Shown here piece by piece: positions 2-37,578 of a DNA stretch of 64,000 nt. The position numbers and the translations under genes were made by a program. The first letter of the stretch is position 1; every line of letters starts with the position of its first letter. Origin of the DNA: Elusimicrobiota bacterium (GTDB taxonomy: Bacteria; Elusimicrobiota; Elusimicrobia; UBA1565); contig JACRDO010000132.1 in assembly GCA_016212885.1 (NCBI GenBank), forward strand, positions 28,779-92,778, in the 5' to 3' direction. The notes under the pieces were generated by a model, which worked only from the letters and a program-made list of their open reading frames with translations, was not told the DNA's origin and made no database searches.

Positions 2-660
2 GCGGCCAAGGCGGCGATGACGACAGCGCGCTACAGCTTGGCCGCGGCCGCGCTCAGCGGCAAGGTCTATGCGGTGGGAGGAATGGGCGGCACGCAGAAG
101 GAGAACGAGGAGTACGACCCGGCCGCCAACACCTGGGCCTCGAAGGCTCTGATGACTACGGCCAGGAACAGCCTGGCCGCGGCCGCGGTCGGAGGCAAGG
201 TGTACGCGGTGGGCGGAACGGGCGGCACCGAAAAAGAGAACGAGGAGTACGACCCGAACGTCAACACCTGGGCGTCGAAGACCGCGATGACCACGGCCCG
301 CTCCGGCCTGGCCGCCGCGGCTGTGGGGGGGAAGATCTACGCGGTTGGAGGCTCCGGGCCCTCGGGAGCCAACGAGGAGTACGACCCCGCAACCAACGGC
401 TGGACATCCAAGACCGCGTTGACCATAGCCCGCTCCGGCTTGGCCGCGGCGGCTGTAGGGGGGAAGATTTACGCGGTTGGAGGGACCAACGGAGTCGTCT
501 TGTCCTCCGCCGCGGAGTATGATCCGGGAAGCAATACCTGGTCCGCGAGAGCTCAGATGCCCACGGCCCGTCAGCAGCTGGCTTTGGCGGCGACGGGAGG
601 CAAGCTGTACGCGCTGGGGGGCATAGGCGGCGCGAACAATGAGAACAAGGAGTACGACCC
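2..660 (+). repeat. Kelch-type beta-propeller repeats (about 5-6 units of ~48 aa) inside the giant CDS
   Basis: Tandem units with the pattern W.SK.(A/L)MTTAR..LAAAAVGGK(I/V)YAVGG....NEEYDP..N.W, visible at both DNA and protein level. Confidence 0.75.
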
Positions 661-15600: not shown

Positions 15601-17077
15601 CAAGAAGAGGGCGGAGCAGCTTCTCGTTTCGCCCTCGGACCTCGTGCCGGCGACCGGGATCAACCAGGGACTCGAGGCCTCCGTCGCCAAGCTCGCCTTG
15701 AGAGCCTCGCGCAACAAGGTGGGCTGGACCCAGGTGAGGCTCGCCCGGATCGGGACCCTCAGCGATTCGGACATCGAGGAGGTCCGCCTCTATCGCGACG
15801 AGGACGCTTCCGGGGCCCTCAGCCCCGCGGATATCCTCATCGGCGCCGGAACCTACAACTCGGGCTCGGCGTCCATCGTGTTCGCCCCCGCCTTCGTGCA
15901 GACGATCACCCTCTCGACCCAGACCTACCTCGTGTCCTACAAGATCAAGCCCTCGGCGACCGTCAATGCCGTCGTCGGGCTCACCGTGGCAGAGTTCACG
16001 GTCGACAACCCGGACAGCGTCTCGCTGACGGGCCTTCCGTTCTCGACTTCGCTCGCGAAGATCCTCGATTCCCGAACGCCGAGCCGGCCCGTCGTGACGG
16101 TGGCTGACGGCGCGTTCAGCAGCAAGTCCGAATACCTGCAGTTCAACTGGCAGTCGAGCGTAGTGCTCGGGTATCTGGCGGGCGCCTTCTACGCGATCGG
16201 AACCACCACGGGAGGGACCGACTTGACGAATGGCTTCAAGCCGATCCGGGTCTCTGAGCTCTCCGTCCGAGCGACGGGCTTTGTCTTGCAAGACCAAACG
16301 ATGTACTACGTCTCCGTGAAGACCCAGTCGAACGAAGGCTGGTTCAGCCCCGTAGGCACCTCGAACGGGGTCTTCATGGACTTCGTCATCCCGCCGACCC
16401 CCGCGGCCAAGATCCACCCCCCCGGGGAGAGCACGCTTCGGGTCAGCTGGGGCTCGGTGACCGGCGGGCTCTCGGGCATCGCCGGCTACCGCATCGAGTA
16501 CCGCCGGGCGCAGAGCCCCGTGTGGTACAACGCGAAGACCAAGCAGCCGATTTCTGAAACCGGAGTCTCGGCAGCCGGAATGGGCGGGAAGGGGCTGCGC
16601 GCCGCGGCTGTCTCGCCCGATGAGCTCGTCACCGGAGTCTCGTACCAGGCCACCGACATGCCAAGCGGAACATTGTACGTGCGCATGCGCGCGTTTTCAA
16701 CCGCGGGCCTGGCCAGCGCGCCGACCGACCCGGAGAAGGTCCAGATGGGGCCGCCGGGGACGGCGGCCATCAGCCAGATATCCTGCGCTCCCAACCCGTT
16801 CGACTCTCGAACAAAGCATGGGTGCATCGTGTACACCCTCAGCCAGGATGCCGACGTGACCATCAGCATCTTCAATGTCTTCGGCGGCCTAATTAAGACC
16901 ATGTCGTATTCGGCCGGGTCCGCCGGCGGGCAGAAGGGGACCACAGATATCACGGCCTGTCCGGTGTTCTGGGACGGGACCGACGAGTCGGGACAGAAGG
17001 TCTCCAAGGGCATCTATCTGGCGGTCATCCAGTCCGGCGGGGCCAAGGAAATCCTGAAGATCGGCGTCATCCACTAG
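2..17077 (+). CDS. Giant secreted multi-domain surface protein (adhesin-like), 5'-partial, >5686 aa
   Basis: One uninterrupted frame runs from the window edge to TAG at 17075-17077. Codons 2-16 (AAKAA) continue the Kelch repeat pattern seen downstream, so the true start lies upstream of the window. Domain and repeat grammar is coherent along the whole length (see sub-features). Overlapping ORFs in other frames are Arg/Gly/Pro-rich artefacts. Confidence 0.9.
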   Translation, partial: AAKAAMTTARYSLAAAALSGKVYAVGGMGGTQKENEEYDPAANTWASKALMTTARNSLAAAAVGGKVYAVGGTGGTEKENEEYDPNVNTWASKTAMTTARSGLAAAAVGGKIYAVGGSGPSGANEEYDPATNGWTSKTALTIARSGLAAAAVGGKIYAVGGTNGVVLSSAAEYDPGSNTWSARAQMPTARQQLALAATGGKLYALGGIGGANNENKEYDPGFSQKFTGLTPNTLYTFKARGRNASGAETPETPAISTYTLALAPGGLVAASSFTNVASTGVRVNWSSGTPAGYNPIGTLYRLELATAASFTTLAGSSQTYNTYAGLTGLTPSTKPYFARVEAISGAGIPTSWLSLGSLSSGTLQVTISTFAGTAGNSYAIAWGDYDNDGNPDLAVANYGLNILLLRNNGNGTFAQSTILATAGNYTGIAWGDTDNDGLLDLAVAVNVGDEFILHNDGGGAFTPNTLTGSGGNSYAVAWGDYDNDGRLDLAVANDLAQDDYVARNNGNGTFAIVPLTQTLGNSRGIAWGDYNNDGYLDLAIGNTDKDVVIVRNNNGVSFSTFAVTGSGFANGGIAWGDYDKDGYLDLAFALNTGIVVLRNNGGDGTFAKNTISAPGSNAGVAWTDYNGDGRLDLAVSRSGGQAQILLRNDGGVSFTTVTFAGSAGGAVRGFSLGNFDLSGGPDIALANDGGSDELLLHNDDQLAHAAPGAPSAGFSATLQEYSLFSSSGILALSWGNGTDAETSTAALRYLLRIGTTVAGSSTTCKIPAKFGLDAGASGGSFLYSTRISSAAAGLRLILQKETTVYWAVMTQDGEGLRSAESAEQTAFLAAPGLVTDLRVSAIVSTGLGASSMTVTLQWTAPGDNGYSGAITNGAFEIRCSTTEAILSTSAYAAAQVAVSLATSVVPGALQTHSIPYLNAAATHYFALTMKDGFGARSALSNPATAQSYVLRLPASAGNLYGLAWGDYDGDGRPDMALSYYGGSVVLMHNDGSGAFTQTTVPGTSGSNTGVAWGDFNSDGRLDLAVAVDGSDEYVLRNNGDGTFTNVPVTGSGGRSYAVAWGDYDNDGLLDLAVANETAQDDLIARNNGNGTFTLVPLTQTIGNSRGAAWGDFNNDGFLDLAIANTDKDVVLARNLGNGTFSTGTIGGTGVSTAAAWGDYNNDNYLDLAVANSDGVALMRNKGDGTFAKVWIAGTAGNNAGLAWADFNNNGFLDLLVSRPGGSAQLLLRNNGDGTFTQTLLPLPGSNVVNVSWGDFDADGDLDIAAGSRGWIDAFIFRNDAALAHNAPAAPVSGFSATFQEYAAFSSTGVLTLSWGDASDVETPTSALNYLVRAGTVVSGSSATLKIPFNYGLDGAAGGGSFPYGTRVSALQRGLKFAGFSKGATIYWAVAAEDGEALRSGESAEQTANLTPPASVNNLAAAQDAAVETSSVSWVRLTWTVPGENGTSNPLLPGARYDLRWSTVAPVALESDYNRAPNQSLIPADGESPGATHTQLLAVTAGKTYYFAMTTLDSCNSRSGLSNAANIPMTAWLQEVITDAAPPAALQGDTTAFLKLRLWTNLGSLSWTKLRVRKLGTLPDAAVKNVAIYGDANTNGIFDSGDTAALYSGVPAVFASSAVTLAVQTVGQTISNSTRTYFLTLQLEPSYLPQDGSTAALKLDGEAFSVIGGGVLGTDFPGLLLDGIDDRVRASDSAVLDPPNQITLDAWVRTTDPGPNRSIITHSNASGTDGYRLWLNGSTCGAGVPTLFIGPSVLCANRGGSPVSIADDRWHQVSAVYSIAGGLGQLMFIDGEMLSTGPVTGSISDSASELGVGGPNNYAGNYLNGKIDEARISQTARYTSSFIPWRRSDTDYNTVLQYHFDAMDGTGTVVTDAAGQVTGILDGQARGYGRSTATVVVDAQDMMMSSATSLLPDTLYRNAVNVPVLKLQLWASQDNVIINRLSVAQTGTGASAGVANLRLYRDNGDGYFQPTLDQSLTLGQVFSVNKATFDLLGATPPAPQQVWSSTKTYFVVWDVTGGAETGKSLGLAISTDDFVLAGATDAVSTAAFPLRASTVPVVSARVYVTPETPPSAWVNVSSLVFIGDFTLGNVDHFYYLFDQNPGTQINGGGSETLWTIGKATATATADGSSWYFHVRAFDYLGQGGTQTDFGPYFVDRTRPTGASFVHFNSTGGALGQSQVNDLAQPVTAQLSVQDSGAGLNVVGPAPLAPSPGTVSLWRLDDTSGAVWKDSGPASISLSSVGVVSRGAGRFGSGVLLAGSGDLRSASPAGLPTGAVPRAIEAWINPVSTQGTLGLVSWGTSGAGTLMRFSMVSGQLAADMGGITVSGGPVLSTGVWQHAAFSYDGSAARLYLNGALAASQSVGALATALGTLFIGATESGGRFWGSIDEVRIMNSALADGQVYDDCTRGHPYFVAFSSSAGSSWQVVVATGAGAGARVGLDGAHGSTGPQTLKVKGLPLNVSTSSAAGALATNQVIFYQTDRAGNTNILGPYGILVDTNPQVAYSTPILPGDGMYTGARPWFEWTGPSTAITAGMGGANGLGGSFYLQVSSNDPTFADPNIVLSISTPAIMGDNTLPKVYGVYLSTHSLGEGATYYWRIRSKSFLDVLGPWGPWKSFVVDASTPAAANYRMYSATGGVVLEGQYTDLMLGVTAQTTVTDNLSGFSKSFRFDPAAGTVALWHFSERDGLAPKDASGNNNTAALLGISGGPPGYRTSPFGAGLRCGGSHVFRTSNAQFDFPANSNMTFEAWVNPDDVSGIQALGGVGSVTFPGGNWLLRISDGRLFFSNNTGFINSPAMMSAGVWQHIAMTLRGARVAFYINGVQVAAGLSGSGGNSGGPSVQPFTLCAAVDNDGVTYQSPYSGMIDEVRVLNYAADPLQIAADYAATLSGIYAVEYSTTAGASWIVVSATAPASGWAHLELGGSEGSVGPEAWSVRNLQLVHSTSAAIGYQATNQIRFSVPDRAGNTRLSGPYAAIVDTTVAAAVSTPSYPANGAFLTQQPNFLWSGPSTKTASGMGLAASYFLEAAADPAFASPVISISTPVIIQSTFAAATFGAYLSTYTLMDATTYYWRVRSRDFLGLLSPPLSVSSFVTDLGAPAGSAFRSFNSTGGATAEDLVNNLTSNVTAYVTFQDPGSGLKVSPAAGAMPFGVIYSTTGGAGNSAWVDGGRTAEGGLPESWWDPTVATITALATFQSRLYAGAAGPGRTFEYDGTQWSQSGTFPSDVLTLKEFRGKLYAGLSGGSVYSFDGISWNLAASLPAARVNALAEHNGRLYAATGAEGQIFAFDPDAGGWYEVFRATEPEFFSLKSYNGRLFAGAGPDIYSFDGSTWTVTNWIGGSARAFEVYRGRLYAGTNISGYIYAYDGSVWTRPLDISEDFNRALGVFGGRLYLGASLPSNGRIYMYDGNTGPGGLLVYTLPTPADSIYAIASYGNRLYLGGTSPSGAKVYVSTPLAVSLTGLDGAKTPEQLKITGLNPIQSVNANICNGNWACTATNQVRFTAADQAGNIGQAGPFAILVDPSLSPPTALYPPSGSFVRSSSPTFVWAESSAMSIHNVQVSSQAAFTNLSLDSIANTPAYTSPVALANATTYYWQVRSRSPSGIYSAFSAVNAFVMDLSRPTTSVFLHFGSTGGPLAESQFGNLAAGVTVEITLQDIVSGLDRGPRRQPVSGAAALYPFDEGFGMYASGLGGEYRLAFSSGASWAPGLISSAVLTGGATYLYNASPNYNPAWPAVGLPIAGGTRTIEAWIYPLDGQGGGILHYSDFRLHISGSCSGPVPGNSYLCVNASQGAAYTFTPSQWHHVAYTYAGGTHTLYADGILLGSFQQMLNTPGAGPIFVGTATDCGAFRGRIDELRILAKALSAAEVDSGYRLSGAFRVSYSSDGGANWTVVTATAPAWGPHLVLSGPPGSTAPQTLRLENFSLAQSTILATGAYGTNQVVFSVSDQAGNEATAGPFTVLVQTSVPQPILTSLTPRSTESIFATAIATDPLSGVMEYRFEASPNKTFAPPVSTSPWVAVSTYLPTALLGWASASSYTFTGLASATTYYVRVTVHDNLSNLSPPSDVGKVAGFAVDAATSTYGSVFFSTKSVAPASALQNTDVAMLKFMLATPLGSSSQFYSLTVRKTGTAPDAAMQKALIAIDNNGDGIYTKGVDAVLAEAPFTNSVATLSLAAAGNSENLGPALKTFFIAYRVTTDAQPGLTVGVDNITEADFGLQFPSRAEGPFPTNVPLIPIADGPNALTVTAFNLAPAEVQPNTLNVALLRLSAATDTGTSIISTMTWRLQASQPFNQLTGLTLWRDKNGNGLFEPGIDERVTSGNDSFTNGYSTMALTTPEISSRTVKTSAVNYFLSANVSASAPQGTTFRIALSTPPDVRLENPLDTVSFTQIPIITSSCTIIQNNIVWISTTDLSPGAYGQTYFQGNLYSVLRATLSVDIGFAEINQVTMDRTGDAQQDDVQYVAVYRDQNLDGGPLNPVVDVFLGSAMFDPLKKATIDITTATVAAGATTVFFIAYQINPAASPGRTLGGSMTNSSYFHTSNPASVVSSVTMDGSSLFEIKTATAQIEATQNQMKIPLAQSAAPGAIDQVANDIGMLRVDMVSDRNNFNWLSLIVRSIGTALDSDVRNVRVFRDDGNGLFSASSDTAISDISQTFTGGQVNIPLSIPQAVTGSTQTYFVTLSLNPSAVPGRTVGVVIPSTASFNVSSPNKVSSQTALGPFAGGPVAINQFANTIAVSTRGITPPLGAVPGARNVGLLDLTLKTNVSNAGWAGLKIDQAGSASDSDITEVKVYYDLNNSGFFDPANTQQYLLVSSTGQRFGQVQAGSVDIVFPSTPSLGPAPQRYFVAVDLADDATPGKTVALRAISKDYFVPVAPNQFGPVSFNSQPPMDQVEIKAPPALMYVLGTSSAPAEVAQGTANVVMAALKVWMSSYTGQWTQLSVDRSGAGIDSDISGVKLFYDTNGNGRLDVMTDERISTASFIGGTAALMFSTQTITTSSRTYYLTYDLSMTAVGDHAVGAAINAPGLLAVAMPNSVSSDNFPFASAASRVVTTRADLFVVGQNKAPGMLIQGATNQVMLSLQLSTTEHAILWSGLTVRSLGTAADSDISSVHIWKDVNADGFLEADMDQDMTSGLNGFLGGSAVVSLITAQTISMAPMRYLVTVDVASCASPSASFGLTLAATNAFSVNAPNTVVDSGFPISSVVVSLKKRAEQLLVSPSDLVPATGINQGLEASVAKLALRASRNKVGWTQVRLARIGTLSDSDIEEVRLYRDEDASGALSPADILIGAGTYNSGSASIVFAPAFVQTITLSTQTYLVSYKIKPSATVNAVVGLTVAEFTVDNPDSVSLTGLPFSTSLAKILDSRTPSRPVVTVADGAFSSKSEYLQFNWQSSVVLGYLAGAFYAIGTTTGGTDLTNGFKPIRVSELSVRATGFVLQDQTMYYVSVKTQSNEGWFSPVGTSNGVFMDFVIPPTPAAKIHPPGESTLRVSWGSVTGGLSGIAGYRIEYRRAQSPVWYNAKTKQPISETGVSAAGMGGKGLRAAAVSPDELVTGVSYQATDMPSGTLYVRMRAFSTAGLASAPTDPEKVQMGPPGTAAISQISCAPNPFDSRTKHGCIVYTLSQDADVTISIFNVFGGLIKTMSYSAGSAGGQKGTTDITACPVFWDGTDESGQKVSKGIYLAVIQSGGAKEILKIGVIH
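1090..4590 (+). repeat. Internal tandem duplication of a ~580-aa module (FG-GAP/VCBS propeller plus Fn3-like tail) in the giant CDS
   Basis: Copy 1 spans about 1090-2860 and copy 2 about 2870-4590. Each has 8-9 FG-GAP units (AWGDYDNDG.LDLAVAN....L.RNNGNGTF) followed by AH(A/N)AP.AP..GFSAT(L/F)QEY...LSWG...AL.YL.R.GT. Some stretches are nearly identical between copies (LTGSGGNSYAVAWGDYDNDGRLDLAVAN vs VTGSGGRSYAVAWGDYDNDGLLDLAVAN). The period is about 1740 nt. Confidence 0.8.
6465..11880 (+). repeat. Four copies of a ~465-aa super-repeat (Ig-like / LamG / Ig-like / Fn3-like) in the giant CDS
   Basis: Units start near 6465, 7858, 9272 and 10840, each opening with F..(F/Y).STGG........(N/D)L...VTA...(V/F)QD..SGL. 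Next comes a LamG/ConA-like block (..(E/D)AW(I/V)NP....W(Q/H)H.A..Y.G....LY.NG.......(I/G).IDE(V/L)R(I/V)). Then come (Y/F).V.YS...G..W.VV...TNQ(V/I).F...D.AGN....GP....VD and P..G.......P.F.W.GPS....YYW(R/Q)(I/V)RS. In the third unit the LamG block is replaced by a beta-propeller. Confidence 0.7.
9540..10345 (+). other. Second beta-propeller-like region (about 8 blades of ~40 aa) replacing LamG in super-repeat unit 3
   Basis: Recurrent (F/Y).(G/N)(R/K)LY(A/L)G......G.(I/V)Y.(F/Y)DG..W units, e.g. FRGKLYAGLSGGSVYSFDGISW, YRGRLYAGTNISGYIYAYDGSVW and FGGRLYLGASLPSNGRIYMYDG. Confidence 0.6.
12230..16060 (+). repeat. Array of 8 tandem ~160-aa modules, each with an embedded D.N.(D/N)G..D Ca-loop-like motif; family not recognised
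   Basis: Period is 460-500 nt. Each unit has (V/A).(M/L)L(K/R)(F/L).L........W..L.V...GT..D.D(I/V)..V.(L/V)(Y/W).D.N.(D/N)G.(F/L)(D/E)....D......F......(L/V)......(I/V)......TYF(V/L). Loop motifs sit near 12410, 12880, 13375, 13870, 14350, 14850, 15310 and 15790. Two more diverged copies lie near 4660-5000 and 5760-6130. Confidence 0.7.
16780..17074 (+). other. C-terminal FlgD-Ig-like / T9SS-type sorting domain (CTD) of the giant protein
   Basis: The terminal ~95 aa read CAPNPFDSRTKHGCIVYTLSQDADVTISIFNVFGGLIKTM.....WDGTDESGQKVSKGIYLAVIQSGGAKEILKIGVIH. This matches the NPF...(I/V).Y.L.....V...I(F/Y)...G.L(V/I)..L......WDG.D..G..V..G(I/V)Y signature of FlgD_ig / Por secretion tail domains. Confidence 0.7.
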
Positions 17078-17195: not shown

Positions 17196-18773
17196 ATGTT
17201 CGCAAGGTTTATTCCATTGGCGCTTCTGGCTCTGGCGCTGCGGGCCTCGCCCGCGTGGGCCCAGGCGATCGGAGGCCAGCCCGGCGAGATATTCTCCTTC
17301 GGGGCCGGGGCCCGGGCGCTCGCCATGGGCTCGGCCTACACGGCCGTGGTCAACGACGTATCTTCGGTCTACTACAACCCCGCCGGGCTCGGGCTTCTGC
17401 CGGCGCGGGAGATCTCCCTCATGCGGGCGTTCCTCTACGGGGATGCGACCTACGACTACATCGCCTACGCGCAAAACAACCGCAAGAACGCCGGCGGCTG
17501 GGGCGCCGAGTTCATCCAGTTCAAGGTCGGCGGGGCGAGCGGGCGCGACCAGGACAACAACGAGACCGGGCAGTTCGGCTACTCTGAAAGAGCCTTCGGC
17601 CTCGCGGCAGCCTGGCGCGGGCTCCTGCACCCGCGGCTCTCCCTCGGCGCCAAGGTGAAGATGATGCAGCGCGGCTTCAGCGGCGCCGGCAACGCCGCCT
17701 CCGACAGGCTCTTTGGCATCGACTTCGGCGCGCAGATGGGGCCGTGGGTCGGCGAGCGCCTCATGCTCGGACTCATAGTGCAGAATGTGATGGGCTTCAA
17801 GCAGGGCGACACGGAGGATTCCCTCAAGCTGCTGCTGCGCCTCGGCGCGGCCTACAAGGTCATCGGGCCGCTCTCCGTCGCGGCCGATGTCTCCAACAAC
17901 AGGGAGTTCCGCGTGGGGACGGAGTACTCCATCGGGTTCCTGGCTCTCCGGGTCGGCCTCGCCCAGCAGGGCATGACCTTCGGCGGAGGGCTGCTCTTCA
18001 AGAACCGTTATTCCGTGGACCTGGCGATGCTCAACCATCCGACCCTCGGCATGTCGCAGAGGATCTCGCTCGGCTACCGGTTCGCCGGCGCCGCGGGCGC
18101 GGGCGAGAAGTCGAAGAAGATGCGGTTCTACGCCGAGGAGTTCCTCGCCAACGCCCAGGCCGAGCTGAAGAAGAGGAACTACCTCAAAGCCCTCAACGAC
18201 TTCTCCGCCGGCCTCGGCATCGACCCCAAGCGCGGGGCCGAGTGGCGCTCGAAGACCGACCGCCTGCGCCGGCTCCTCAAGCGGATGGGCCTCGAGGCCC
18301 ATCCGGAGGACAGCGCCACGCTCGCAGAGGACTCGCAGCCCGCCGTCGTAGCTTTCGCGGCCATAGAATCCTACATGGGCCGGGAGGAGGAGCGGGCGAT
18401 GACTCTGGCCCACGCGGCGGTCGGCCTGGATACCGCCAAGGGCGCCTTCGGACGGCTGCTCGACTCGCTGGCAGCGCTGACGGGACATGCGATCCAGCGC
18501 GACCAGCTCCTGCCGCCGCTGCGGCTGGCGGAGTTCAAGATGAAGCGGGCCATGGACGCCATCTATGCCCGCAGGTTCGAGGCGGCCGTGACCCTGCTTC
18601 GCGAAGCCCTCTGGCTCGACCCCGGCAACGTCATGGCCTGGACCCGGCTCGGCTCGGCCTTCTTCGCCTCCGGGGACCGCCCGAAGGCCGCGGAGGCGTA
18701 CCGAGAGGCGCTCCGGCTCAACCCGGCCGATGAGAAGCTGAGGCAGTTCGTCAGGTCCCAGGGGTTGGAGTAA
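17196..18773 (+). CDS. Outer-membrane beta-barrel protein, PorV/PorQ (FadL)-like, with C-terminal TPR-like domain
   Basis: Signal peptide MFARFIPLALLALALRASPAWAQ. The N-terminal motif GARALAMGSAYTAVVNDVSSVYYNPAGLG is typical of FadL/PorV/PorQ-type barrels. An amphipathic strand pattern runs to about residue 300 (..QRISLGYRF). A ~220-aa helical TPR-like tail follows (AWTRLGSAFFASGDRPKAAEAYREALRLNPAD). Confidence 0.55.
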   Translation: MFARFIPLALLALALRASPAWAQAIGGQPGEIFSFGAGARALAMGSAYTAVVNDVSSVYYNPAGLGLLPAREISLMRAFLYGDATYDYIAYAQNNRKNAGGWGAEFIQFKVGGASGRDQDNNETGQFGYSERAFGLAAAWRGLLHPRLSLGAKVKMMQRGFSGAGNAASDRLFGIDFGAQMGPWVGERLMLGLIVQNVMGFKQGDTEDSLKLLLRLGAAYKVIGPLSVAADVSNNREFRVGTEYSIGFLALRVGLAQQGMTFGGGLLFKNRYSVDLAMLNHPTLGMSQRISLGYRFAGAAGAGEKSKKMRFYAEEFLANAQAELKKRNYLKALNDFSAGLGIDPKRGAEWRSKTDRLRRLLKRMGLEAHPEDSATLAEDSQPAVVAFAAIESYMGREEERAMTLAHAAVGLDTAKGAFGRLLDSLAALTGHAIQRDQLLPPLRLAEFKMKRAMDAIYARRFEAAVTLLREALWLDPGNVMAWTRLGSAFFASGDRPKAAEAYREALRLNPADEKLRQFVRSQGLE

Positions 18774-18786
18774 CAAAAAGGCAATG

Positions 18787-18802
18787 AAAGCCCCGGCTTT
18801 TT
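18787..18802 (+). terminator. Weak hairpin plus T-tract after the barrel gene (AAAGC-CCCG-GCTTT-TT)
   Basis: 5-bp stem, 4-nt loop and a short T run, 14 nt after the stop codon. It is too weak to assert termination. Confidence 0.2.
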
Positions 18803-18823
18803 CCTGCATACTTGAGCGGTGAC

Positions 18824-21331
18824 ATGGACGCTGTCATCATCGTCCTGATCCCGGTGCTGTTCCTGACGCTGGCGGCCAGCATGCTGGTCGTCAGCCAGGT
18901 TTCCGGCTTCTTCCAGTCCAACAAGTACTCCCGCAAGCGCCAGCAGGACCGCATGGAGATCCAGCGGTTCATGGCCCAACTGGCCGGCGCGCAGAGCCAG
19001 GTCTTTGCGCGCAGCAAGGAGCTCGAGCGGCTCTCGGCGAACCTGCAGCTCAGCAACCAGGAGCTGGCCCGGCTCAACAGCATGAAGACGAAGTTCCTGT
19101 CGATGGTTGTCCACGATATGAGGACCCCGCTTGCCTCCATCAAGGGGTTCGGCGAAATGCTCAGCCGCCAGACGCTCCCGGCGCAGCAGACGAAGTATGT
19201 GAACTATATCGTCAGCGGCACGGACCAGATCAACCAGCTGATGGCCGACCTCACGGACCTCGCGGTCATCGAAGCAGGCAAGCTCAAAATGGAAAAGCAG
19301 CCATTCGCCTTGTCCGACATGGTCAATGACCTCGTGCCCGGGATTGGCCTGCAGGCGCAGAAGAAGGGCGTGATTTTCACGGCGCCGGAGCCGCCGCGGG
19401 GGATCACCGTAATCGGGGACAGCTTCCGTCTGCGCCAAGCGCTCCAGAACTTCCTCACCAACGCGGTCAAATTCACCCCCGCGGGGGGAAAAGTCGAGCT
19501 GAGGGTCAGCGTGGGCCCGCGGGGCGCGCTGTTCCAGGTCAAGGACACGGGCCCGGGCATCCACGCCTCCGAGCGCAAGCGCATCTTCGAGAAGTTTTAC
19601 CAGTCGCAGTTCGGGGACCCGAAGGCGCGCCAGAAGGGCTGGGGGCTCGGCCTCTCGATCGCGCAGGAGATCATCCGCTCGCACCAGGGGGAGATGGGGG
19701 TGGATTCCGCCGGGCTCGGCAAGGGCGCCACCTTCTGGTACCGCATCCCGCTCAAGCCCTCCAGGATGGCGGCCTACGCGCTCGCAAAGACCGCGGCGGC
19801 CGTCCTCCTGCTGGCCCTGCTCCTGCCGGGGGCCCGGGCCCAGCAGACGCTCCCGATCGAGGAGAAGGCGAAGTTCGAGAAATCCCTCGAGGACCGCGCC
19901 AACACGATCCTGCTCCACATCCTGGGGCCCAACCGCGGGCGTGTCGTAGTCGACGCCACGCTCGACTTCACCCGCATCGAGAAGTTCGACGTCAAGAGCG
20001 GAGCCGTATCGCCTGACCGGGAGACCCTCTACCTCTGGGAGAAGGTGGGAGCCCAATCGGGCGGCCAGGACCTGCTCCCGGGCATCCCGCCCCAGGAGCA
20101 GCTGCCGAACGCGAACCTGGCGCGCTCCTACGAGCGGCAAAACTCCTTCCCGACGGCCTTTATCAAGAGACTCAAGGTGACGGTTATCTTGGACGGCGCT
20201 GTCGGCGCCGACCAACGCAAGATCATCACGGATGCCCTGACGGAGGCTCTCGACCTCAAGAAAGATCGGGGAGTGGATGCAAACGGCTTCACGCTCAAAG
20301 ACGAAATGCTGATCGTTCCCGCCACCTTCGCCCCCGCATGGAAGACGGTCTGGTACACCCCGGAATCCGCAAGCCTCCTCTTCAAATACGCGCTCATCAG
20401 CCTGATGACGCTGATCACCCTCATCGTCGTCGCGGCCTGCTTCCTGAAGCTCGCGGAGGCGATGGACTCGATGGCGCAGGCGCAGGCCCATCAGCTCCAG
20501 ATGGACTTCGGCCAGCAGGGCGCCGACCTCGCCGGGAAGGAAGAGGAGGAGAAGAAGAAGAAGGAGGAGGAGGCCAAAGCCGAGAGCGCGGAGGCCGCCT
20601 CCACCAAGATCGTCTTCAACGTCAAGGTGGAGCAGATCGAGACGCTCATCGAGATGGTGCGCAGCCAGGACGCGGAGAACATCTCCCTCATCGCCGCGCA
20701 CCTCCCGCCCGACGTCAAGAAGGCGTTCCTGGCCAAGCTCCCGCCGAGCGTCTACAGCGAGGTGATCTTCTATCTCGGCCGCGTGCGCTTCATCGACCAG
20801 GAGGTTGTCTCCACCGTCAAGGACGAGCTGGAGCGGCGCCTGGAGAGCGCGGTCGGCGGCCGGTCGAACCTCCTCGGCATGATCGAGGCCTCGGACCTCA
20901 AGTCCAAGCGCGAGCTCCTCAAGCTGCTCGAGGAGCGCGACCCCGACCTTGCGCGGCAGCTGCGCGAGCAAATCCTGCTCTTCGAGGACCTCTCGGACCT
21001 CGAGGAGAAGGACTGGTCCTTGGTCTTCTCGGTCGTCACGCTCGAGGAATGGGCCTTCGCGCTCTACGATGCCCCGGAGGATCTGGTCGAGGCGCTCAAG
21101 AGCCAGATGCTTCCGAAGACCTGGGCCATCCTGTCCCAGATGATGCAGGTGGGCCGTCCCTCGGAAAGGGCCATCGAGGAGGCGCACGAGCGCATCGTCA
21201 ACTCGGTCTGGAAGCTGGTTCAGGACGGCCGCATCACCAACCCCATCACCCGCCGCATCGAGCGCATGGCCGCCCGGCCGAAGGAAGAGGGCCCTCCCCC
21301 CTTGGTCGAGGGCGCCGCGGAGCTGGGCTAG
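18824..21331 (+). CDS. Fusion protein: membrane-anchored histidine kinase + FliF RBM3-like periplasmic ring domain + FliG (middle and C-terminal)-like domain
   Basis: The frame is open from TTG 18812 / ATG 18824 to TAG 21329-21331 with no internal stop. N-terminal TM helix (AVIIVLIPVLFLTLAASMLVV), coiled coil, H-box FLSMVVHDMRTPLASI, N-box NAVKFT, G1 DTGPGI, G2 GWGLGLSIA. From M at 19766 there is a TM or signal-like helix. Next comes LEDRANTILLHILGPNRGRVVVDATLDF...IKRLKVTVILDG...TM, colinear with FliF RBM3, beta-collar and TM2. After a Glu/Lys-rich linker, a region aligns end to end with FliG_M and FliG_C (ISLIAAHLPPDVKKAFLAKLPPSVYSEVI...; LLKLLEERDPDLARQLREQILLFEDL...WAFALYDAPEDLVEALKSQM). 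Confidence 0.8.
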   Translation: MDAVIIVLIPVLFLTLAASMLVVSQVSGFFQSNKYSRKRQQDRMEIQRFMAQLAGAQSQVFARSKELERLSANLQLSNQELARLNSMKTKFLSMVVHDMRTPLASIKGFGEMLSRQTLPAQQTKYVNYIVSGTDQINQLMADLTDLAVIEAGKLKMEKQPFALSDMVNDLVPGIGLQAQKKGVIFTAPEPPRGITVIGDSFRLRQALQNFLTNAVKFTPAGGKVELRVSVGPRGALFQVKDTGPGIHASERKRIFEKFYQSQFGDPKARQKGWGLGLSIAQEIIRSHQGEMGVDSAGLGKGATFWYRIPLKPSRMAAYALAKTAAAVLLLALLLPGARAQQTLPIEEKAKFEKSLEDRANTILLHILGPNRGRVVVDATLDFTRIEKFDVKSGAVSPDRETLYLWEKVGAQSGGQDLLPGIPPQEQLPNANLARSYERQNSFPTAFIKRLKVTVILDGAVGADQRKIITDALTEALDLKKDRGVDANGFTLKDEMLIVPATFAPAWKTVWYTPESASLLFKYALISLMTLITLIVVAACFLKLAEAMDSMAQAQAHQLQMDFGQQGADLAGKEEEEKKKKEEEAKAESAEAASTKIVFNVKVEQIETLIEMVRSQDAENISLIAAHLPPDVKKAFLAKLPPSVYSEVIFYLGRVRFIDQEVVSTVKDELERRLESAVGGRSNLLGMIEASDLKSKRELLKLLEERDPDLARQLREQILLFEDLSDLEEKDWSLVFSVVTLEEWAFALYDAPEDLVEALKSQMLPKTWAILSQMMQVGRPSERAIEEAHERIVNSVWKLVQDGRITNPITRRIERMAARPKEEGPPPLVEGAAELG

Positions 21332-21334
21332 GCT

Positions 21335-22459
21335 ATGGCGGAGAAAGTCGACTTCCTTCTCGCCTCCCTGCGCGGCCAGCCACCGCCCGAGGCCCCGCCG
21401 TCCGTCGAGGCCCAGGCGGCTGCGGCCGCCTCGGAAGAGCAGCTCGCCCCTCTGCGCTCGAAGGTCGAGGAGCTCGAGCGCAAGCTCGCCGAGCTCTCGG
21501 CGCCGCCCGCCCCGCCGGAAGGCGCGGAGGCTCCGGCGGAGCCGCCCAAGCCGCCGACCGAACTGATGATGTTCCTGCACACGCGCATGGAGCTTCTCGA
21601 GCGCCGCCTGGAGCTCGCCCAGCAGGAGGCCCTGCGGGCCAACCTGGTCCTCCGCGAGCGCGAGGAAGCGCAGAAGAAGGCCCAGGGCGAGGTCGAGGAG
21701 CTCTTCCGCTCGATCCGCGAGCAGGAGCGCTCGGCCCGCTTCGACCGGAGGCTGCGCGAGCAGTACTCCGCGACCCACTCCCGCGTGGAGGAGCTGGAGG
21801 CCCGGCTGGCCATGGCCCAGCTGCGCATGGTCCCCGCCGACGAGGTTCTCCGGTCTATCGAGAGGGAGGAGGGCTTGGGCGAGCTCCGTTCCCGGCTGAA
21901 GGAGCAGCTTTCAAGGATGTCCGGGGGGGAGCCGTCCGTCGGCGCCCCGGCGCCGGCCCCGCCCCCAGCGCCTCCGGCAGGGGCCCCGGACCGGCCCGAG
22001 GGACCCGCACGGCCCGCGCAGGACGCCCCGTTCAACTATAGCGAGCTTCCGCCCCTTTCCATCGTGACGGCCAAGATCGCCGATCTTGAGCTTCGGCTCG
22101 CGGAGGCCGAGAAAGCCCGCGAGAAGGAGCGCCAAAGCCGCCTCCTCTGGGAGAACAACGTCCTTCAGGCGCTCCGGCAGTCCTCCGGCCGCTGGCAGAA
22201 AGCCGGCGGAGCCGGGCTTCTGGTGGAGGCGACTTTGGAGAGTATGGTAGAGTTGCTCAAGAAGAGGGACCTCCTCGCCGGGGAGACGGCTCAGATCCTG
22301 GACAGGCTCCGGTCCGAGCCGCCGGGCTCGGGGGAGGAGCCCCTCCTGCGGGCGCGGCTCGCGGAGCTGCGCAAGAGCATCGAAGAGCTCCAGGGCGAGC
22401 TCGACAAGAAGATGGCGATCGTCAACGCCTGGACCGAGCGGAATAAAGGCAAGGATTAA
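21335..22459 (+). CDS. Coiled-coil / proline-rich protein of unknown function
   Basis: ATG lies 3 nt after the preceding stop. Heptad-rich Glu/Arg/Leu segments (VEELERKLAEL, RMELLERRLELAQQEALRANL, IADLELRLAEAEKAREKERQ) are separated by Pro/Ala linkers. No recognisable family. Confidence 0.6.
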   Translation: MAEKVDFLLASLRGQPPPEAPPSVEAQAAAAASEEQLAPLRSKVEELERKLAELSAPPAPPEGAEAPAEPPKPPTELMMFLHTRMELLERRLELAQQEALRANLVLREREEAQKKAQGEVEELFRSIREQERSARFDRRLREQYSATHSRVEELEARLAMAQLRMVPADEVLRSIEREEGLGELRSRLKEQLSRMSGGEPSVGAPAPAPPPAPPAGAPDRPEGPARPAQDAPFNYSELPPLSIVTAKIADLELRLAEAEKAREKERQSRLLWENNVLQALRQSSGRWQKAGGAGLLVEATLESMVELLKKRDLLAGETAQILDRLRSEPPGSGEEPLLRARLAELRKSIEELQGELDKKMAIVNAWTERNKGKD

Positions 22460-23197
22460 ATGGACATTACGACACTCTCCGGCATCGTCGGCGTCTTAGC
22501 CATGGTGCTCATCGGGGGCTTCACCGGCGAGCTCTCCGCGGTCTTCCTGAACGCGCACGGCATCGTGATCGTCTTCGGCGGGACCGCCGTCGCCATGCTC
22601 ATCAATACGCCGCTGCGCTATGTTCGGGAGACGCTCCTGGCGTTGGCGGAGCTCTTTCGGGGAGACCGCTTCAGCGACCCGGGCGAGCTGATCCCGGTGC
22701 TGGTGCGCCTTTCCGAGCAGGTCCAGGCGCACGGACTCGGGGCCCTGCGGGGCATCGACGAAAGGGCCGCGGGCGGCTTCCTCGGCCAGGCCGCCACCAC
22801 TGCGATGGAGTACAACAACCCCGACTTCGTCCGGCGCGTGCTGGAGACCGAGGTCAACAACAGGGTGGACCGGGCCAACGAGGTCATCAACGTGGTCCGC
22901 ACCATGGGCGTTGTCGCACCGATGTTCGGCCTGCTCGGCACCCTCATCGGCATCGTGCGGGTCATGGCCGTGCTCACCGACCCGGTGAAGGTCGCCCCGG
23001 CCATGGCTGTCGCCATCACCACGGCCTTCTACGGCATCGCCTTGGCCAACCTGGTGGCGGTCCCCATGGCCGGCAAGATGCGCTTCAGGCTGTGGGAGGA
23101 GATCAAGGTCCGGGCGATGGTCATTGAGGGCGTCATCGGCATGATGCAGGGCACGGTCCCCCTGGTGCTCGAGCGCCGCCTGCAGGCTTTCAAATAG
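22460..23197 (+). CDS. motA: MotA/PomA-family stator channel protein (4 TM)
   Basis: 245 aa. It has TM1-TM2, a ~100-aa cytoplasmic loop, then TM3-TM4 with MGVVAPMFGLLGTLIGIV and APAMAVAITTAFYGIALANLVAVPMAGKM, the MotA-type signature. The start abuts the previous stop (0-nt gap). Confidence 0.85.
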   Translation: MDITTLSGIVGVLAMVLIGGFTGELSAVFLNAHGIVIVFGGTAVAMLINTPLRYVRETLLALAELFRGDRFSDPGELIPVLVRLSEQVQAHGLGALRGIDERAAGGFLGQAATTAMEYNNPDFVRRVLETEVNNRVDRANEVINVVRTMGVVAPMFGLLGTLIGIVRVMAVLTDPVKVAPAMAVAITTAFYGIALANLVAVPMAGKMRFRLWEEIKVRAMVIEGVIGMMQGTVPLVLERRLQAFK

Positions 23198-23200
23198 ATC

Positions 23201-23881
23201 ATGGCCGTCTACCGCTTCAGGAAGGAGGAGCTCGAGGGACATCTCAACAGGAACGCCCTCTGGGCGATCGTCTACGGGGACATGATGAGCTACCTCATGA
23301 TCCTCTTCCTCCTCCTGCTCTCCACCGCGCTCATGAAGAACGTCAAGAAGGAGGATAGGCCGGAGGTCGAGAAGTCCCTCATGGAGATCCAGGTGGTCTT
23401 CGGCGGCAAGGTGGACAAGGCGTACGAGGAGAAGAGGTCGCGCGACGAGAAATTCTTCAAGATCTCCGAGGCGCTGAAGGGGATGCAGAGCGCCAACGTC
23501 AGCGTCATCGCCACCGAGAAGCTCGTCCGCGTGCAGCTCGGGGAGGGCGTTCTCTTCGACTCCGGCAGCGCGGAGCTCAAGGAGAGCGCCGCGCCGCTGC
23601 TGGAGCCTATCGCCAAGCAGATGCTCGTCCCCGACAACCAGATCCGCGTCGAAGGCCACACCGACACCGTCCCTATCCGAAAAGGCAAGTACAAGTCCAA
23701 CTGGGAGCTCTCCATGGCCCGCGCCTATTCGGTCGTCCGGACGCTCGAGGGGATGGGCGTCAAGCCGGAGCGGCTCTCCGGCATCGGCTACGGCGAGTAC
23801 CGCCCGGTCGCCGCCAACGACACCCCTGAGAACAAGGCCAAGAATCGCCGCATCGAGATCAACCTGCTGCGGTCGGAATAG
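23201..23881 (+). CDS. motB: MotB-family stator protein with OmpA-like peptidoglycan-binding domain
   Basis: The N-terminal TM carries the conserved Asp (WAIVYGDMMSYLMILFLLL). The C-terminal OmpA-like domain reads VLFDSGSAELK...IRVEGHTDTVP...SNWELSMARAYSVVRTL...GYGEYRPVA.N.T.....NRRIEI. Confidence 0.85.
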   Translation: MAVYRFRKEELEGHLNRNALWAIVYGDMMSYLMILFLLLLSTALMKNVKKEDRPEVEKSLMEIQVVFGGKVDKAYEEKRSRDEKFFKISEALKGMQSANVSVIATEKLVRVQLGEGVLFDSGSAELKESAAPLLEPIAKQMLVPDNQIRVEGHTDTVPIRKGKYKSNWELSMARAYSVVRTLEGMGVKPERLSGIGYGEYRPVAANDTPENKAKNRRIEINLLRSE

Positions 23882-23897
23882 TATAATCTGCCGGCCC

Positions 23898-24593
23898 GTG
23901 CGCGCGCTCATCCTAACGGCGGATAACGCCTTTGCCCTCAGGCTGACGGGCCTGCTGAGAGGCCTGGGCTTGTCTGTCGATGTCCTCCACAGCCTCTCCT
24001 CGGCCGCGGCCAGGACCCGCTGCGAGCTGGCGGTGGTGGATTGGGACGCGGTCCGCTCCGGGCCGGCCCAGGCCCTCCCGCGCCTGCGCGGCTTGGCGTG
24101 GAGGGTGGTCCTCCTGGCAGGGGCCGATGTCGTCTATGGGCCGCAGATGGCCGAAGCGCTCGCCTGGGGGGTCTGCGACGTCGTCTTGAAGACCCTCAAG
24201 GATCCGGCCCTGGCGGGCCGGATCGCGGCTCAGCTTAAGTCCCGGCGCTACTCGGCGATCGAGCCGCGAGGCTGCGGATTGCGGCTGGACAAGGCGGCCC
24301 GGCGGGTGTGGGCGCGCCGCGGACGCGGCTGGAAGGAGATCCCCGCCCTGCCGCCCAAGGAATTCGATCTCCTGTGCGCCTTCTTGGAGCACCCGGGGGC
24401 GGCGCTCCGGCGCGCGGCCCTCCTGGAGCGCTTCTGGCCCGGGAGATCCGGCGACGTCAACCCGGAGACCGTGGACCGGCACGTCCAGCGGCTCAGGCGC
24501 CGGCTCGGGGCCGTCGGGTGGCTGATCGTTTCGGTGCGCGGCGTCGGCTACCGCTTCAGTTTAGGAGAGAGTCCCCATGACAAACGCGGATGA
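23898..24593 (+). CDS. OmpR/PhoB-type response regulator (receiver with partly degenerate active site + winged-helix DNA-binding domain)
   Basis: GTG start. The receiver has the phospho-acceptor context LAVVDWD and the Lys (DVVLKT). However, the acidic pair reads AD-N and the conserved Thr/Ser position reads A (VVLLAG). The C-terminal trans_reg_C-like region reads KEFDLLCAFLEHPG...R..L......G......ETVDRHVQRLRRRL......I.SVRGVGYRF. Confidence 0.7.
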   Translation: MRALILTADNAFALRLTGLLRGLGLSVDVLHSLSSAAARTRCELAVVDWDAVRSGPAQALPRLRGLAWRVVLLAGADVVYGPQMAEALAWGVCDVVLKTLKDPALAGRIAAQLKSRRYSAIEPRGCGLRLDKAARRVWARRGRGWKEIPALPPKEFDLLCAFLEHPGAALRRAALLERFWPGRSGDVNPETVDRHVQRLRRRLGAVGWLIVSVRGVGYRFSLGESPHDKRG

Positions 24594-33160: not shown

Positions 33161-33347
33161 CTGCGATGATAGGATAGCGCGGGCGGGGTTCGGGCGCCTG
33201 GGCCGTTCATCCGAATATCGGGGTTCTATTGGGCTAGATTCCGGTAGGACCAAAGACTTCGGCGTTTTGCCGTTTAGACCCAAGGTGTTTTCGCCCGCCG
33301 CGTGTACAATGGATTCTTGAAGGGGCCGACACCCGGAGGTGCGGGCA

Positions 33348-34222: not shown

Positions 34223-34864
34223 CTACCGCTCCAAGAAGCCCGGCACCTCCCGGATGTCGTCTAGGACCGGGACACCGCTCCTCACCAGCCGGTGCTTGGC
34301 CTGATAGCCGCGCGCGATGAGCGCGCAGCCCACTCCCATGGCCCGCGCGGTCTCCAAGTCATGCACGGTATCGCCGATCAGGATGATCTTCTCCGGCTCT
34401 ATGCCGCAGGAGCGGATCCAGCTCGCGCCCAGCTCCACCTTGCTGCCGGCGTGGTAGTCCCCCAAGCCGAGGACCGGGTCGAAATAGTCCCGGATATTGA
34501 AATGGACCAGCGCTTTTTCGAGCATCTCGTGCTTGTAAGCCGATAGGATGCCCTGCTGAATTCCCTTGCCGCGGAGCGTCTCCAGAACGTCCGCGGCGCC
34601 CTCGTGGAGGCGGCCTTCGGCCCAGATGCGCTCATGGTAGAGCCCCGCCCATTCGTTCGCGGGGACGTCGAAAGGCTCCACGCTGAAGTCGAAGCCGATC
34701 TTCCGGTAGAACTCGATGACGGGGAAGTCGAAGTTCTCGAGGTAGTACTCCAGGGGGACCTCGGGCATGGAGCGGCGCCGGCGCATCGCGTTGAGGCACT
34801 CGAGGCAGAGCCGGGCGTCGTCGAGGAGCGTGCCGTTGAAGTCCCAGATGACGCGCCGGATCAC
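34223..34864 (-). CDS. HAD-superfamily phosphatase (phosphoglycolate phosphatase-like)
   Basis: GTG start in a GTGA overlap with the upstream gene's stop. Motif I reads VIWDFNGTLLDD (second Asp replaced by Asn), motif II GILSA, motif IV LIGDTVHDLETA. The remaining upstream part of ORF 34223..35611 is Arg/Pro-rich artefact. Confidence 0.7.
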   Translation of the reverse strand: MIRRVIWDFNGTLLDDARLCLECLNAMRRRRSMPEVPLEYYLENFDFPVIEFYRKIGFDFSVEPFDVPANEWAGLYHERIWAEGRLHEGAADVLETLRGKGIQQGILSAYKHEMLEKALVHFNIRDYFDPVLGLGDYHAGSKVELGASWIRSCGIEPEKIILIGDTVHDLETARAMGVGCALIARGYQAKHRLVRSGVPVLDDIREVPGFLER

Positions 34865-35826: not shown

Positions 35827-35853
35827 GCGGGAAGGGTAGCATATTTGCTTAAA

Positions 35854-35883: not shown

Positions 35884-35904
35884 TGTTTCGCTTTGTTTTT
35901 TGCC

Positions 35905-36129: not shown

Positions 36130-36154
36130 CGCGGGCGAAGCGACAGCGGCGTCT

Positions 36155-37568: not shown

Positions 37569-37578
37569 GCGGCGAACG

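Follow-up and report, generated by a model that had tools for sequence, protein, structure and literature searches.

A FliF/FliG-like rotor subunit fused to a histidine kinase and encoded with MotAB-type stator genes, a PorV-like barrel and a giant surface protein in Elusimicrobiota: parts of a possible non-flagellar envelope machine

In a 64,000-nucleotide stretch of an Elusimicrobiota genome (contig JACRDO010000132.1, positions 28,779 to 92,778; hereafter called the window), six genes form a compact cassette directly downstream of a gene for a giant secreted surface protein. They encode a PorV-like outer-membrane barrel with a tetratricopeptide repeat (TPR) domain, a fusion of a histidine kinase with FliF-like and FliG-like rotor domains, a coiled-coil protein, stator subunits of the MotA and MotB type and an OmpR-type regulator. 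As judged from their sequences the parts belong to known families, but their combination appears to be new. We give about an even chance to the reading that the cassette is a non-flagellar, envelope-spanning and ion-driven rotor-stator, which acts on the giant adhesin via the PorV-like protein. Since the cassette can be assigned neither to the flagellum, nor to the secretion system of type 9 (T9SS), nor to Zorya, and since its MotA resembles the Tol and Ton proteins only weakly, we class it as an envelope machine of a new kind, whose putative function is deduced from its parts. A first-pass annotation of this DNA had described the gene cluster, interpreted it as a co-opted rotor-stator and noted that no system of this composition was known to it. 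The cluster is confirmed by our analysis and the interpretation is supported. In the literature searches no description of the fusion or of the cassette was found; there was only a passing remark on motAB and fliG in 10.1101/2022.07.08.499144.

The central component is the fusion protein, which is deposited at NCBI as HY922_12930 (835 aa) from an Elusimicrobia groundwater metagenome-assembled genome (MAG). From the N-terminus it consists of a first transmembrane (TM) segment, a coiled coil, HisKA, HATPase_c, TM2, an RBM3-like domain, TM3, an acidic linker, FliG_M and FliG_C. The three hydrophobic segments (residues ~1–27, 315–337 and 517–547) split the chain into a cytoplasmic kinase, a periplasmic domain of ~177 residues and a cytoplasmic FliG_M/FliG_C part. 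A profile of the periplasmic domain matched FliF only in the PDB (E 8e-7 to 1e-4), in the Salmonella residues 241–284 and 382–440, i.e. RBM3, and this domain covers the whole periplasmic segment. The Pfam family YscJ_FliF_C scored 19.2 bits on the window fusion, below its cut-off of 23.8, and 40.7 bits, above the threshold, on the relative P0230. For the cytoplasmic part, the profile of the fusion family matched FliG_MC from T. maritima with an E-value of 9e-33. Foldseek searches with an AlphaFold2 model of the fusion (predicted local distance difference test, pLDDT, 81) returned at E<1e-3 nothing but FliG (E 5e-10) and the RBM3/collar region of FliF (E 6e-6 to 9e-5, TMt up to 0.58; for 6sd1 E 7e-6 and TMt 0.56). 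FliG_C of the model superimposes on 1qc7 with a TMt of 0.90 and a root-mean-square deviation of 1.1 Å. In addition, the Gly-Gly linker of FliG and an MFXF-type hinge (LLFED) are conserved in the fusion family.

The rotor regions are thus true homologues of RBM3 and FliG_M/FliG_C, by profiles as well as by fold. The possibility that they contain MgtE_N only, which the first-pass annotation had raised against its own proposal, is ruled out by Pfam, by the FliG_MC profile match and by the fold search. Of the FliF-like part, however, only RBM3 stands: RBM1 and RBM2 (YscJ_FliF, PF01514) gave no match at E≤0.1 in the window fusion. Likewise, FliG_N, the domain by which FliG binds the C-terminus of FliF, had no Pfam match there, and FliG_M comes straight after TM3 and the acidic linker. 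Because RBM3 and FliG are located in one polypeptide, neither FliG_N nor the C-terminal peptide of FliF would be needed. Presumably, the fusion is a rotor subunit with a built-in histidine kinase. The Pfam searches suggested earlier for the cassette proteins gave matches above the curated cut-offs for HisKA, HATPase_c, FliG_M, FliG_C, MotA_ExbB, MotB_plug, OmpA and Trans_reg_C.

Both stator subunits resemble flagellar proteins over their full length. MotA was recognized by the Pfam families MotA_ExbB (78.6 bits) and MotA_N (27.6 bits), its best NCBIfam models were flagellar PomA, MotA and MotP, and it aligned in full to the solved flagellar MotA/PomA structures (E 2e-32). The flagellar models reached 147 bits versus 33 bits for TolQ and 21 bits for ExbB. 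Across 39 members of the family, both Pro153 and Pro202 are conserved. MotB contains the channel Asp in its TM segment (Y25-G26-D27), a plug and an OmpA-like peptidoglycan-binding domain, with Pfam scores of 33.1 bits for MotB_plug and 78.3 bits for OmpA, NCBIfam matches to MotD, MotB and MotS, and PDB matches to MotB/PomB. The Asp of the YGD motif is present in at least 95% of 33 family sequences. The alignments and the conserved residues bear out the earlier description of a four-TM MotA and of a MotB with channel Asp and OmpA-like domain. All NCBIfam equivalog scores of the stator are below the cut-offs (e.g. PomA, 147 versus 341 bits); it is therefore regarded as a divergent member of the family and not as an orthologue of a named stator.

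The surfaces on which rotor and stator would meet have changed considerably. Torque-helix residues were numbered by E. coli FliG; the database FliGs P0059–P0063 show the canonical residues in the same columns. Among 11 members of the fusion family K264 is never basic, D288 is replaced by Gln in ten, D289 by Met, Val, Ser, Asn or Thr, and R297 occurs in two. The only torque charge retained is at the position of R281, with Lys or Arg in 9/11. The EHPQR motif, the surface to which FliM binds, reads E/Q, mostly D, P/A and a variable residue in the same 11 proteins, and R160 is found in one of them, whereas EHPQ together with R160 is retained in five of six canonical database FliGs. On the stator side, the equivalents of MotA R90 and E98 (E. 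coli numbering, mapped through C. sporogenes MotA) are Q89 and R97. With the canonical charge pairs largely lost, torque generation would need a rewired interface. Other charges are conserved instead: R/K97 and D100 of MotA, within a loop of the family consensus ALR(E/D)xD, as well as the basic residue at position 281 and, in most members, a Glu at position 287 of FliG. Such alternative charges on both partners would fit a rewired interface better than decay.

The loss of most torque-helix charges, of the MotA R90 equivalent and of the FliM-binding motif could also be taken to mean that nothing rotates. The cassette would then be a static scaffold anchored to peptidoglycan, possibly ion-gated and similar to Tol-Pal or TssL, which positions or stabilizes the barrel and the giant protein. 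OmpA-like domains do serve as pure anchors in TssL and Pal, both of which are among the NCBIfam matches. Nevertheless, the channel Asp of MotB is kept even in a remote variant of the cassette (variant C, see below), where the motif is YSD, and the conservation of the plug and of both MotA prolines indicates that conformational work coupled to ions is under selection. The hinge motifs and the fold of FliG_C are kept as well, and alternative charges are conserved on MotA and FliG. Hence, we consider a static scaffold quite unlikely.

The coiled-coil protein encoded between the fusion and MotA is cytoplasmic, with a peak hydropathy too low for a TM segment. An alignment of 12 homologues revealed an N-terminal K..S[LI][LF]A[ST]L motif, Pro-rich linkers and a conserved REREEAQ.KAQ.E.E..F core. 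Searches for relatives in Pfam, NCBIfam and the PDB gave coiled-coil noise only. The protein may act as a scaffold or adaptor of the rotor.

The first gene of the cassette encodes a protein with signal peptide, a barrel (residues ~72–295) and a C-terminal TPR domain of ~215 aa (residues 307–521). NCBIfam PorV_fam matched with an E-value of 1.3e-22 and 80.8 bits versus a cut-off of 90; PorVQ2 and PorQ were also matched, and the T9SS_OM_PorV equivalog scored 19.4 bits versus a cut-off of 250. The Pfam matches were TPR_1/2 and UPF0164. The AlphaFold2 model (pLDDT 90.3) has 14 strands and 12 helices. Foldseek ranks PorV from the type 9 translocon first (6h3i_F, E 5.8e-9, TMt 0.64), with FadL and TbuX next. 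The family match and the structural match agree with the FadL/PorV-like barrel-TPR protein described in the first-pass annotation. Because a barrel of 14 strands puts both termini in the periplasm, the TPR domain is presumably periplasmic.

The giant protein upstream comprises 5686 aa within the window and 7028 aa on a Logan contig. It contains Kelch/beta-propeller and GEVED domains (Kelch repeats also on the Logan contig), and orthologues with complete N-termini carry signal peptides. Outside the C-terminal domain the giant proteins vary between loci in length and domains. Their last ~100–120 aa ('...PNPFDSR...WDG.D..G.KVSKGIY...KIGVIH') are strongly conserved over 21 loci. This sorting-like domain scored 16.5 bits with Por_Secre_tail (cut-off 23) and 26.7 bits with FlgD_ig (cut-off 27). 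It matched the C-terminus of PorU with an E-value of 3e-8; all matches to PorU/PorZ C-termini and CHU_C are weak and sub-threshold. The previously assumed C-terminal sorting domain (CTD) corresponds to this conserved domain, but its match to the T9SS sorting domains is below threshold.

In five loci (L005, L008, L010, L014 and L015), a stand-alone open reading frame (ORF) for this domain, with a signal peptide and 126–144 codons from stop to stop, follows the giant gene and precedes the barrel gene; the copy in L005 (7983–8396) has 137 aa as called. Their matches to FlgD_ig, CHU_C and Por_Secre_tail are weak (all <27 bits). In locus L004 the gene of an IS200/IS605-type Y1 transposase (7709–8383, minus strand) is inserted between the giant and barrel genes.

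The gene neighborhood is conserved. Among 5.8 billion proteins, a word-indexed search picked out 58 clusters that belong to the fusion family (37–100% identity); nearly all named ones are from Elusimicrobia MAGs. Most members have 800–876 aa and a fused kinase, and some have 537–609 aa and no kinase. Scanning one genome per GTDB species, with motifs that are specific to the close family and so give no measure of its absence in other phyla, yielded 41 non-duplicate loci with the fusion gene (32–74% identity), almost all of them in Elusimicrobiota MAGs. The window proteins were mapped onto all loci, and each component was counted in those loci that had enough flanking sequence. The barrel-TPR gene is next to the rotor gene in 25/25 loci and the giant gene is located upstream in 21/24. 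MotA is present in 32/33 and MotB in 22/23 loci, and in 30/31 the rotor gene has a kinase either fused to it or beside it. The regulator is next to MotB in nine of 23 loci and is thus an accessory part of the cassette. Two gene orders were observed. Order A (giant, barrel, kinase-rotor fusion, coiled coil, MotA, MotB) is represented by 24 loci, and order B (barrel, kinase, MotA, rotor, coiled coil, MotB) by 14. A cassette fragment (L046) is from a MAG labelled Curvibacter, which is probably a binning error.

More distant relatives came to light when 1.84 billion cluster representatives were searched exhaustively by HMMER with a kinase-free rotor profile. This search gave 124 matches at E≤1e-30 (within P0186–P0331), and 85 of the best 150 matches carry the full TM-RBM3-TM-FliG_MC architecture. 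Natural RBM3-FliG fusions thus form a large, highly diverse superfamily in metagenomes, with at least 85 clusters at 50% identity. A word-based protein search with P0230 found two relatives only. In ten divergent members Pfam recognized FliG_M and FliG_C in all ten, YscJ_FliF_C in six and an extra C-terminal TPR in three. In this TPR-bearing subgroup the TPR is cytoplasmic, and the torque helix keeps an acidic pair (LKEEME) and not the R281 position. To the subgroup belongs variant C, with 34 metagenome loci (L086–L119), ~20–25% identity, a GC content of 45% and no kinase. The gene order is CTD protein, 540-aa barrel-TPR protein, fusion, coiled-coil protein of ~1000 aa, MotA and MotB, after which the cassette meets housekeeping genes. 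The coiled-coil gene has the same position in orders A and B and in variant C; the version in L116 has 1012 aa with 26% Glu. The label Elusimicrobiota for variant C comes from its barrel, which shares 86% identity with a protein deposited at NCBI from two MAGs of this phylum. Two further loci also have no kinase. In L084 the order is beta-propeller/fn3 protein, fusion, MotA, MotB and a second MotB, and in L085 the gene before the fusion encodes a PorV-like barrel-TPR protein. In L084 (3055–5141) the tandem MotB genes, which follow a single MotA gene, encode 223 and 216 aa. One fusion protein (P0264/P0334), located on a 4.9-kb contig, is deposited as 'Thermoprotei archaeon' and is probably mis-binned.

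Since they are kept in the remote variant, CTD cargo, PorV-like/TPR barrel, RBM3-FliG rotor subunit, coiled-coil protein and MotAB constitute the invariant core. The kinase, which is missing from variant C, is an add-on of the window's clade and not part of this core. The link of the rotor-stator to the barrel and the giant protein, which had been suspected from the single locus, is the most strongly conserved feature and persists in the remote variant. Recurrence in 41 loci and in the 34 loci of variant C also answers the concern that the arrangement is unique to one assembly. A chimeric contig or a frameshift artefact is ruled out by the identical 835-aa protein at NCBI and by 47 full-length homologues of at least 800 aa.

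FliG and FliF are not known from outside flagella, in which the MS-ring additionally encloses the export gate. Like the flagellar motor core, the cassette has full-length homologues of MotA and MotB, with the prolines, the plug, the channel Asp and the domain that binds peptidoglycan. It also has the RBM3 fold of FliF between two TM helices and the ARM_M/ARM_C folds of FliG with Gly-Gly linker and MFXF-like hinge. The 1:1 stoichiometry of FliF and FliG is also shared; here the covalent link fixes it, as it does in engineered FliF-FliG fusions, which still form S-rings. In contrast to the flagellar motor, it has no RBM1/RBM2, FliG_N or EHPQR, four of the five torque-helix charges are gone, and it is associated with a coiled-coil protein, with a barrel resembling PorV, with a giant CTD-like surface protein and, in the window's clade, with a histidine kinase. 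As expected from the first-pass annotation, Pfam scans of the 27 other ORFs of the window revealed no flagellar or chemotaxis family. No genes for FliM/FliN, FlhAB, FliPQR, FliHIJ, rod, hook or filament were found in the window ORFs or in the flanks of L002–L005, L021 and L116. Because RBM1/2, FliG_N, EHPQR, most torque charges and other flagellar genes in the window are all missing, the cassette is, by its gene content, not a flagellar operon.

A survey of 219 Elusimicrobiota genomes reported that most free-living members have no flagellar structural genes, yet contain motAB and fliG homologues whose role was unclear (10.1101/2022.07.08.499144). These orphan homologues are probably the same genes as those of the cassette. 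In contrast to our analysis, that study worked with KEGG-level gene counts and did not describe an RBM3/FliG fusion, a kinase fusion or a cassette with PorV-like and CTD proteins. It also found complete flagellar gene sets in a few Elusimicrobiota, and our gene scan covers the 64-kb window and the listed flanks. That the cassette is a normal or decaying fragment of a flagellar regulon, with the other genes elsewhere in the genome, therefore has to be considered, the more so as the closest solved or annotated relatives of four proteins or domains are flagellar. We judge it highly improbable, however. The regions that house the export gate (RBM1/RBM2) are missing together with FliG_N and EHPQR, the cassette is strictly linked to non-flagellar partners, and its conservation over deep divergence speaks against decay. 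It ends beside housekeeping genes, no flagellar gene accompanies it in the window or in the listed flanks of related loci, and, as mentioned above, most free-living Elusimicrobiota were reported to have no flagellar structural genes. Moreover, the nearest matches outside Elusimicrobiota are ordinary fliF and fliG gene pairs. The Omnitrophota loci L047 and L048 were considered as a second phylum with the fusion and rejected; L047 carries true fliF and fliG as separate genes in a normal flagellar operon. A neighbor-joining tree places bona fide FliGs in a clade apart from the fusion FliG domains, which is a weak hint, since the tree has no bootstrap and some fragments in it are mislabelled as canonical.

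In other features the cassette resembles the T9SS and the associated gliding machinery (GldLM/PorLM, PorV, SprB, PorXY): a putative ion-driven inner-membrane motor of the 5:2 type, an outer-membrane barrel of 14 strands that is similar to PorV, a probable two-component system associated with it and, encoded beside the barrel, a giant surface protein whose conserved C-terminal domain is beta-sandwich-like and sorting-like. There are clear differences as well. The motor of the cassette is MotAB and not GldLM/PorLM, the barrel has an extra TPR domain, the transmission is a putative FliF/FliG ring instead of the periplasmic GldM/PorM shaft and the GldKN ring, and neither the PorV nor the CTD profiles reach their curated cut-offs. 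SprA/Sov, PorU, PorZ, GldL/PorL, GldM/PorM and GldK/N were not among the Pfam and NCBIfam matches of the cassette or the Pfam matches of the other window ORFs. As far as we know, the T9SS is regarded as confined to the Bacteroidota/FCB group, while the host here belongs to Elusimicrobiota. That a 5:2 motor, PorV, CTD cargo and a two-component system which may act on the motor can be coupled in one system is described for the T9SS (PMC10951265, PMC8986121); PorX, the regulator of PorXY, is proposed to act on the motor activity (PMC10951265).

In ExbBD, TolQR, AglRQS-Glt and ZorAB, too, an ion-driven, stator-like unit of the inner membrane energizes a process at the outer membrane or surface, and Agl-Glt additionally makes use of AglZ, a coiled-coil protein of the cytoplasm, and of barrels in the outer membrane together with an adhesin. 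The other 5:2 motors of which we are aware (Ton, Tol, Agl, GldLM, Zor) all work without FliG or FliF. From Tol and Ton the cassette differs in the low TolQ and ExbB scores of its MotA. Zorya or another defence system is ruled out: MotA had no ZorA match, and no other Zor protein was found. The matches of MotB to ZorB models reflect generic MotB homology.

From the list of parts, their topology and the linkage of their genes we infer the following division of labor. Ion flow through peptidoglycan-anchored MotA5B2 units would turn a ring of RBM3-FliG subunits. Engineered FliF-FliG fusions are known to assemble into 34/35-mer S-rings (PMC10941966, PMC11481574). The periplasmic face of the ring may engage the TPR domain of the PorV-like barrel, which in turn would hold the sorting domain of the giant adhesin, and the motor could in this way power the export, the anchoring or the movement of the adhesin at the cell surface. 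The cassette would then be a functional analogue of GldLM/PorLM-PorV-SprB, with a FliF/FliG ring as transmission. In the window's clade, the sensor-less kinase and the OmpR-type regulator most likely couple the state of rotor and stator (load, assembly) to transcription.

Several points weigh against such a machine. The peptidoglycan lies between an inner-membrane ring and an outer-membrane barrel, and the cassette encodes no rod-like shaft. The canonical rotor-stator charge pairs (FliG K264, D288, D289 and R297; MotA R90) are largely absent. No SprA-like translocon that would take the giant protein through the outer membrane was found in the window. Both the PorV assignment of the barrel protein and the CTD assignment of the giant protein remain below the curated thresholds. 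Finally, three loci of order B (L021, L032 and L033) have no upstream giant gene.

The two-component part of the cassette suggests a further reading. The kinase lacks a sensor domain in the periplasm. Both of its ends are anchored in the membrane, and it is located directly upstream of the rotor domain; conservation of its H-box, N-box and G-boxes extends over 47 homologues of full length. The regulator has a clear winged helix (Trans_reg_C, 66.4 bits), and NCBIfam NblR aligned over residues 4–218. The receiver expected of a response regulator is divergent: Pfam Response_reg gave no match, and receiver homology was seen solely through a family HMM, which matches the receiver of a response regulator (RR)-GGDEF protein encoded at 34861–36216. 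In an alignment of 10 homologues the Asp in 'VVDWD' is a candidate phospho-acceptor, and a candidate Lys is also present. Hence, of the winged-helix response regulator named in the first-pass annotation the output domain is confirmed and the receiver putative.

In some other bacteria, stopped flagellar rotation triggers two-component signalling. By analogy, the cassette might serve mainly as a signalling device, in which a FliG ring driven or bound by MotAB senses load, ion-motive force or surface contact and acts through the kinase and the regulator on the adhesin genes. The architecture and conserved catalytic motifs of the kinase, its presence in nearly all loci of the high-GC clade (30/31, fused or adjacent) and the position of the regulator after MotB in nine of 23 loci are in favor of such a device. 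On the other hand, variant C, L084 and L085 manage without a kinase, the regulator is missing in 14 of the 23 loci, and a sensor alone leaves the strict linkage of the PorV-like barrel unexplained. A mechanosensory two-component device, which had been offered as a possible role, is therefore weakened as the primary role, kinase and regulator being confined to the window's clade, and we regard it as unlikely. In L085, the gene of a GGDEF and HD-GYP (HD_5) protein (3115–4206, minus strand) and that of the remote fusion are convergent. Considered along with the genes for RR-GGDEF and PilZ close to the cassette in the window, this hints at a connection to cyclic di-GMP.

Should the proposed rotor-stator exist, it would represent a new class of envelope machine. 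It would then become testable whether a FliG ring can turn when FliM/FliN and the canonical charge pairs are missing, how a rotor of the inner membrane can be put to use at the outer membrane without a rod, and how the motor module of the flagellum is related in evolution to its secretion part. The orphan motAB and fliG genes of non-flagellated Elusimicrobiota would be explained, and possibly also the movement or attachment of these bacteria, including the magnetotactic ones. The natural fusion of kinase and rotor would be a hard-wired example of motor-coupled signalling. A more far-reaching proposal, which we find rather unlikely, is that the RBM3-FliG fusion and MotAB form a rotary machine that is ancient and independent, a minimal rotor-stator standing beside the flagellar motor as its sister and not a degraded flagellum. 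It would never have had a type III export gate, or would have lost it very early, and would drive secretion or surface movement of giant CTD-anchored adhesins through a PorV-like partner in the outer membrane. In that case, Elusimicrobiota would possess a previously unknown gliding or secretion apparatus and a living model of the flagellar motor without flagellum.

The features of the locus are listed in Table 1. The giant ORF ends 118 nt upstream of the start of the barrel-TPR gene, and the six cassette genes follow each other with gaps of 38/50, 3, 0, 3 and 16 nt. The end of the regulator gene overlaps a major facilitator superfamily (MFS) gene by 17 nt. Coordinates, tight spacing and MFS overlap agree with the first-pass annotation; its seven genes are six, unless the MFS gene is counted. 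GC content at third codon positions (GC3) is 0.88–0.94 across the cassette ORFs and the giant ORF, which supports coding; the window as a whole has a GC content of 66%. No terminator-like sites were found on the plus strand inside the cluster by a promoter and terminator scan, which overall was not above the shuffled expectation.

Table 1. Features of the cassette and of the adjoining genes (window positions).
Feature	Position	Strand	Basis or remark
Giant secreted surface protein	17..17077	+	Open at 5' window end
Sorting-like C-terminal domain of giant protein	~16703-17074	+	
PorV/FadL-type barrel-TPR	17196..18773	+	NCBIfam, Pfam, AlphaFold2, Foldseek
Barrel	~17409-18080	+	
TPR domain	~18114-18758	+	
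HK-FliF RBM3-FliG(M+C) fusion (HK, histidine kinase)	18812..21331	+	TTG start; NCBI start ATG 18824; 835/839 aa
HisKA	19082-19279	+	Pfam, 60.8 bits
HATPase_c	19415-19756	+	Pfam, 89.5 bits
TM2	~19766-19834	+	Hydrophobic segment
Periplasmic FliF RBM3-like ring-building domain	~19841-20371	+	Profile vs PDB, Foldseek
TM3	~20372-20464	+	Hydrophobic segment
FliG_M	20642-20854	+	Pfam, 34.6 bits
FliG_C	20927-21238	+	Pfam, 60.5 bits
Coiled-coil protein, 374 aa	21335..22459	+	No TM segment
MotA/PomA-type stator A subunit, 245 aa	22460..23197	+	Pfam, NCBIfam, PDB alignment
MotB-type stator B subunit, 226 aa	23201..23881	+	Pfam, NCBIfam, PDB match
OmpR/PhoB-type winged-helix regulator	23898..24593	+	Pfam Trans_reg_C
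MFS gene	24577-25938		Overlaps regulator gene

Three ORFs of 918, 586 and 542 aa, located at 30527–33283 (minus strand) and 52807–56192 (plus strand), have a coding-like GC3 and no Pfam match at E≤0.001. Further downstream of the cassette, genes of an F-type ATP synthase (36175–44275) are interrupted by other genes. A gene for a NAD-dependent epimerase (40389–41519) is located between those of the alpha (38642–40156) and gamma (41507–42487) subunits, and a gene for a PilZ-domain protein of 115 aa (42510–42857) between gamma and beta (42854–44275), with a 4-nt overlap with beta. In locus L003 an atp operon and an RR-GGDEF gene are likewise found downstream of the motor cassette.

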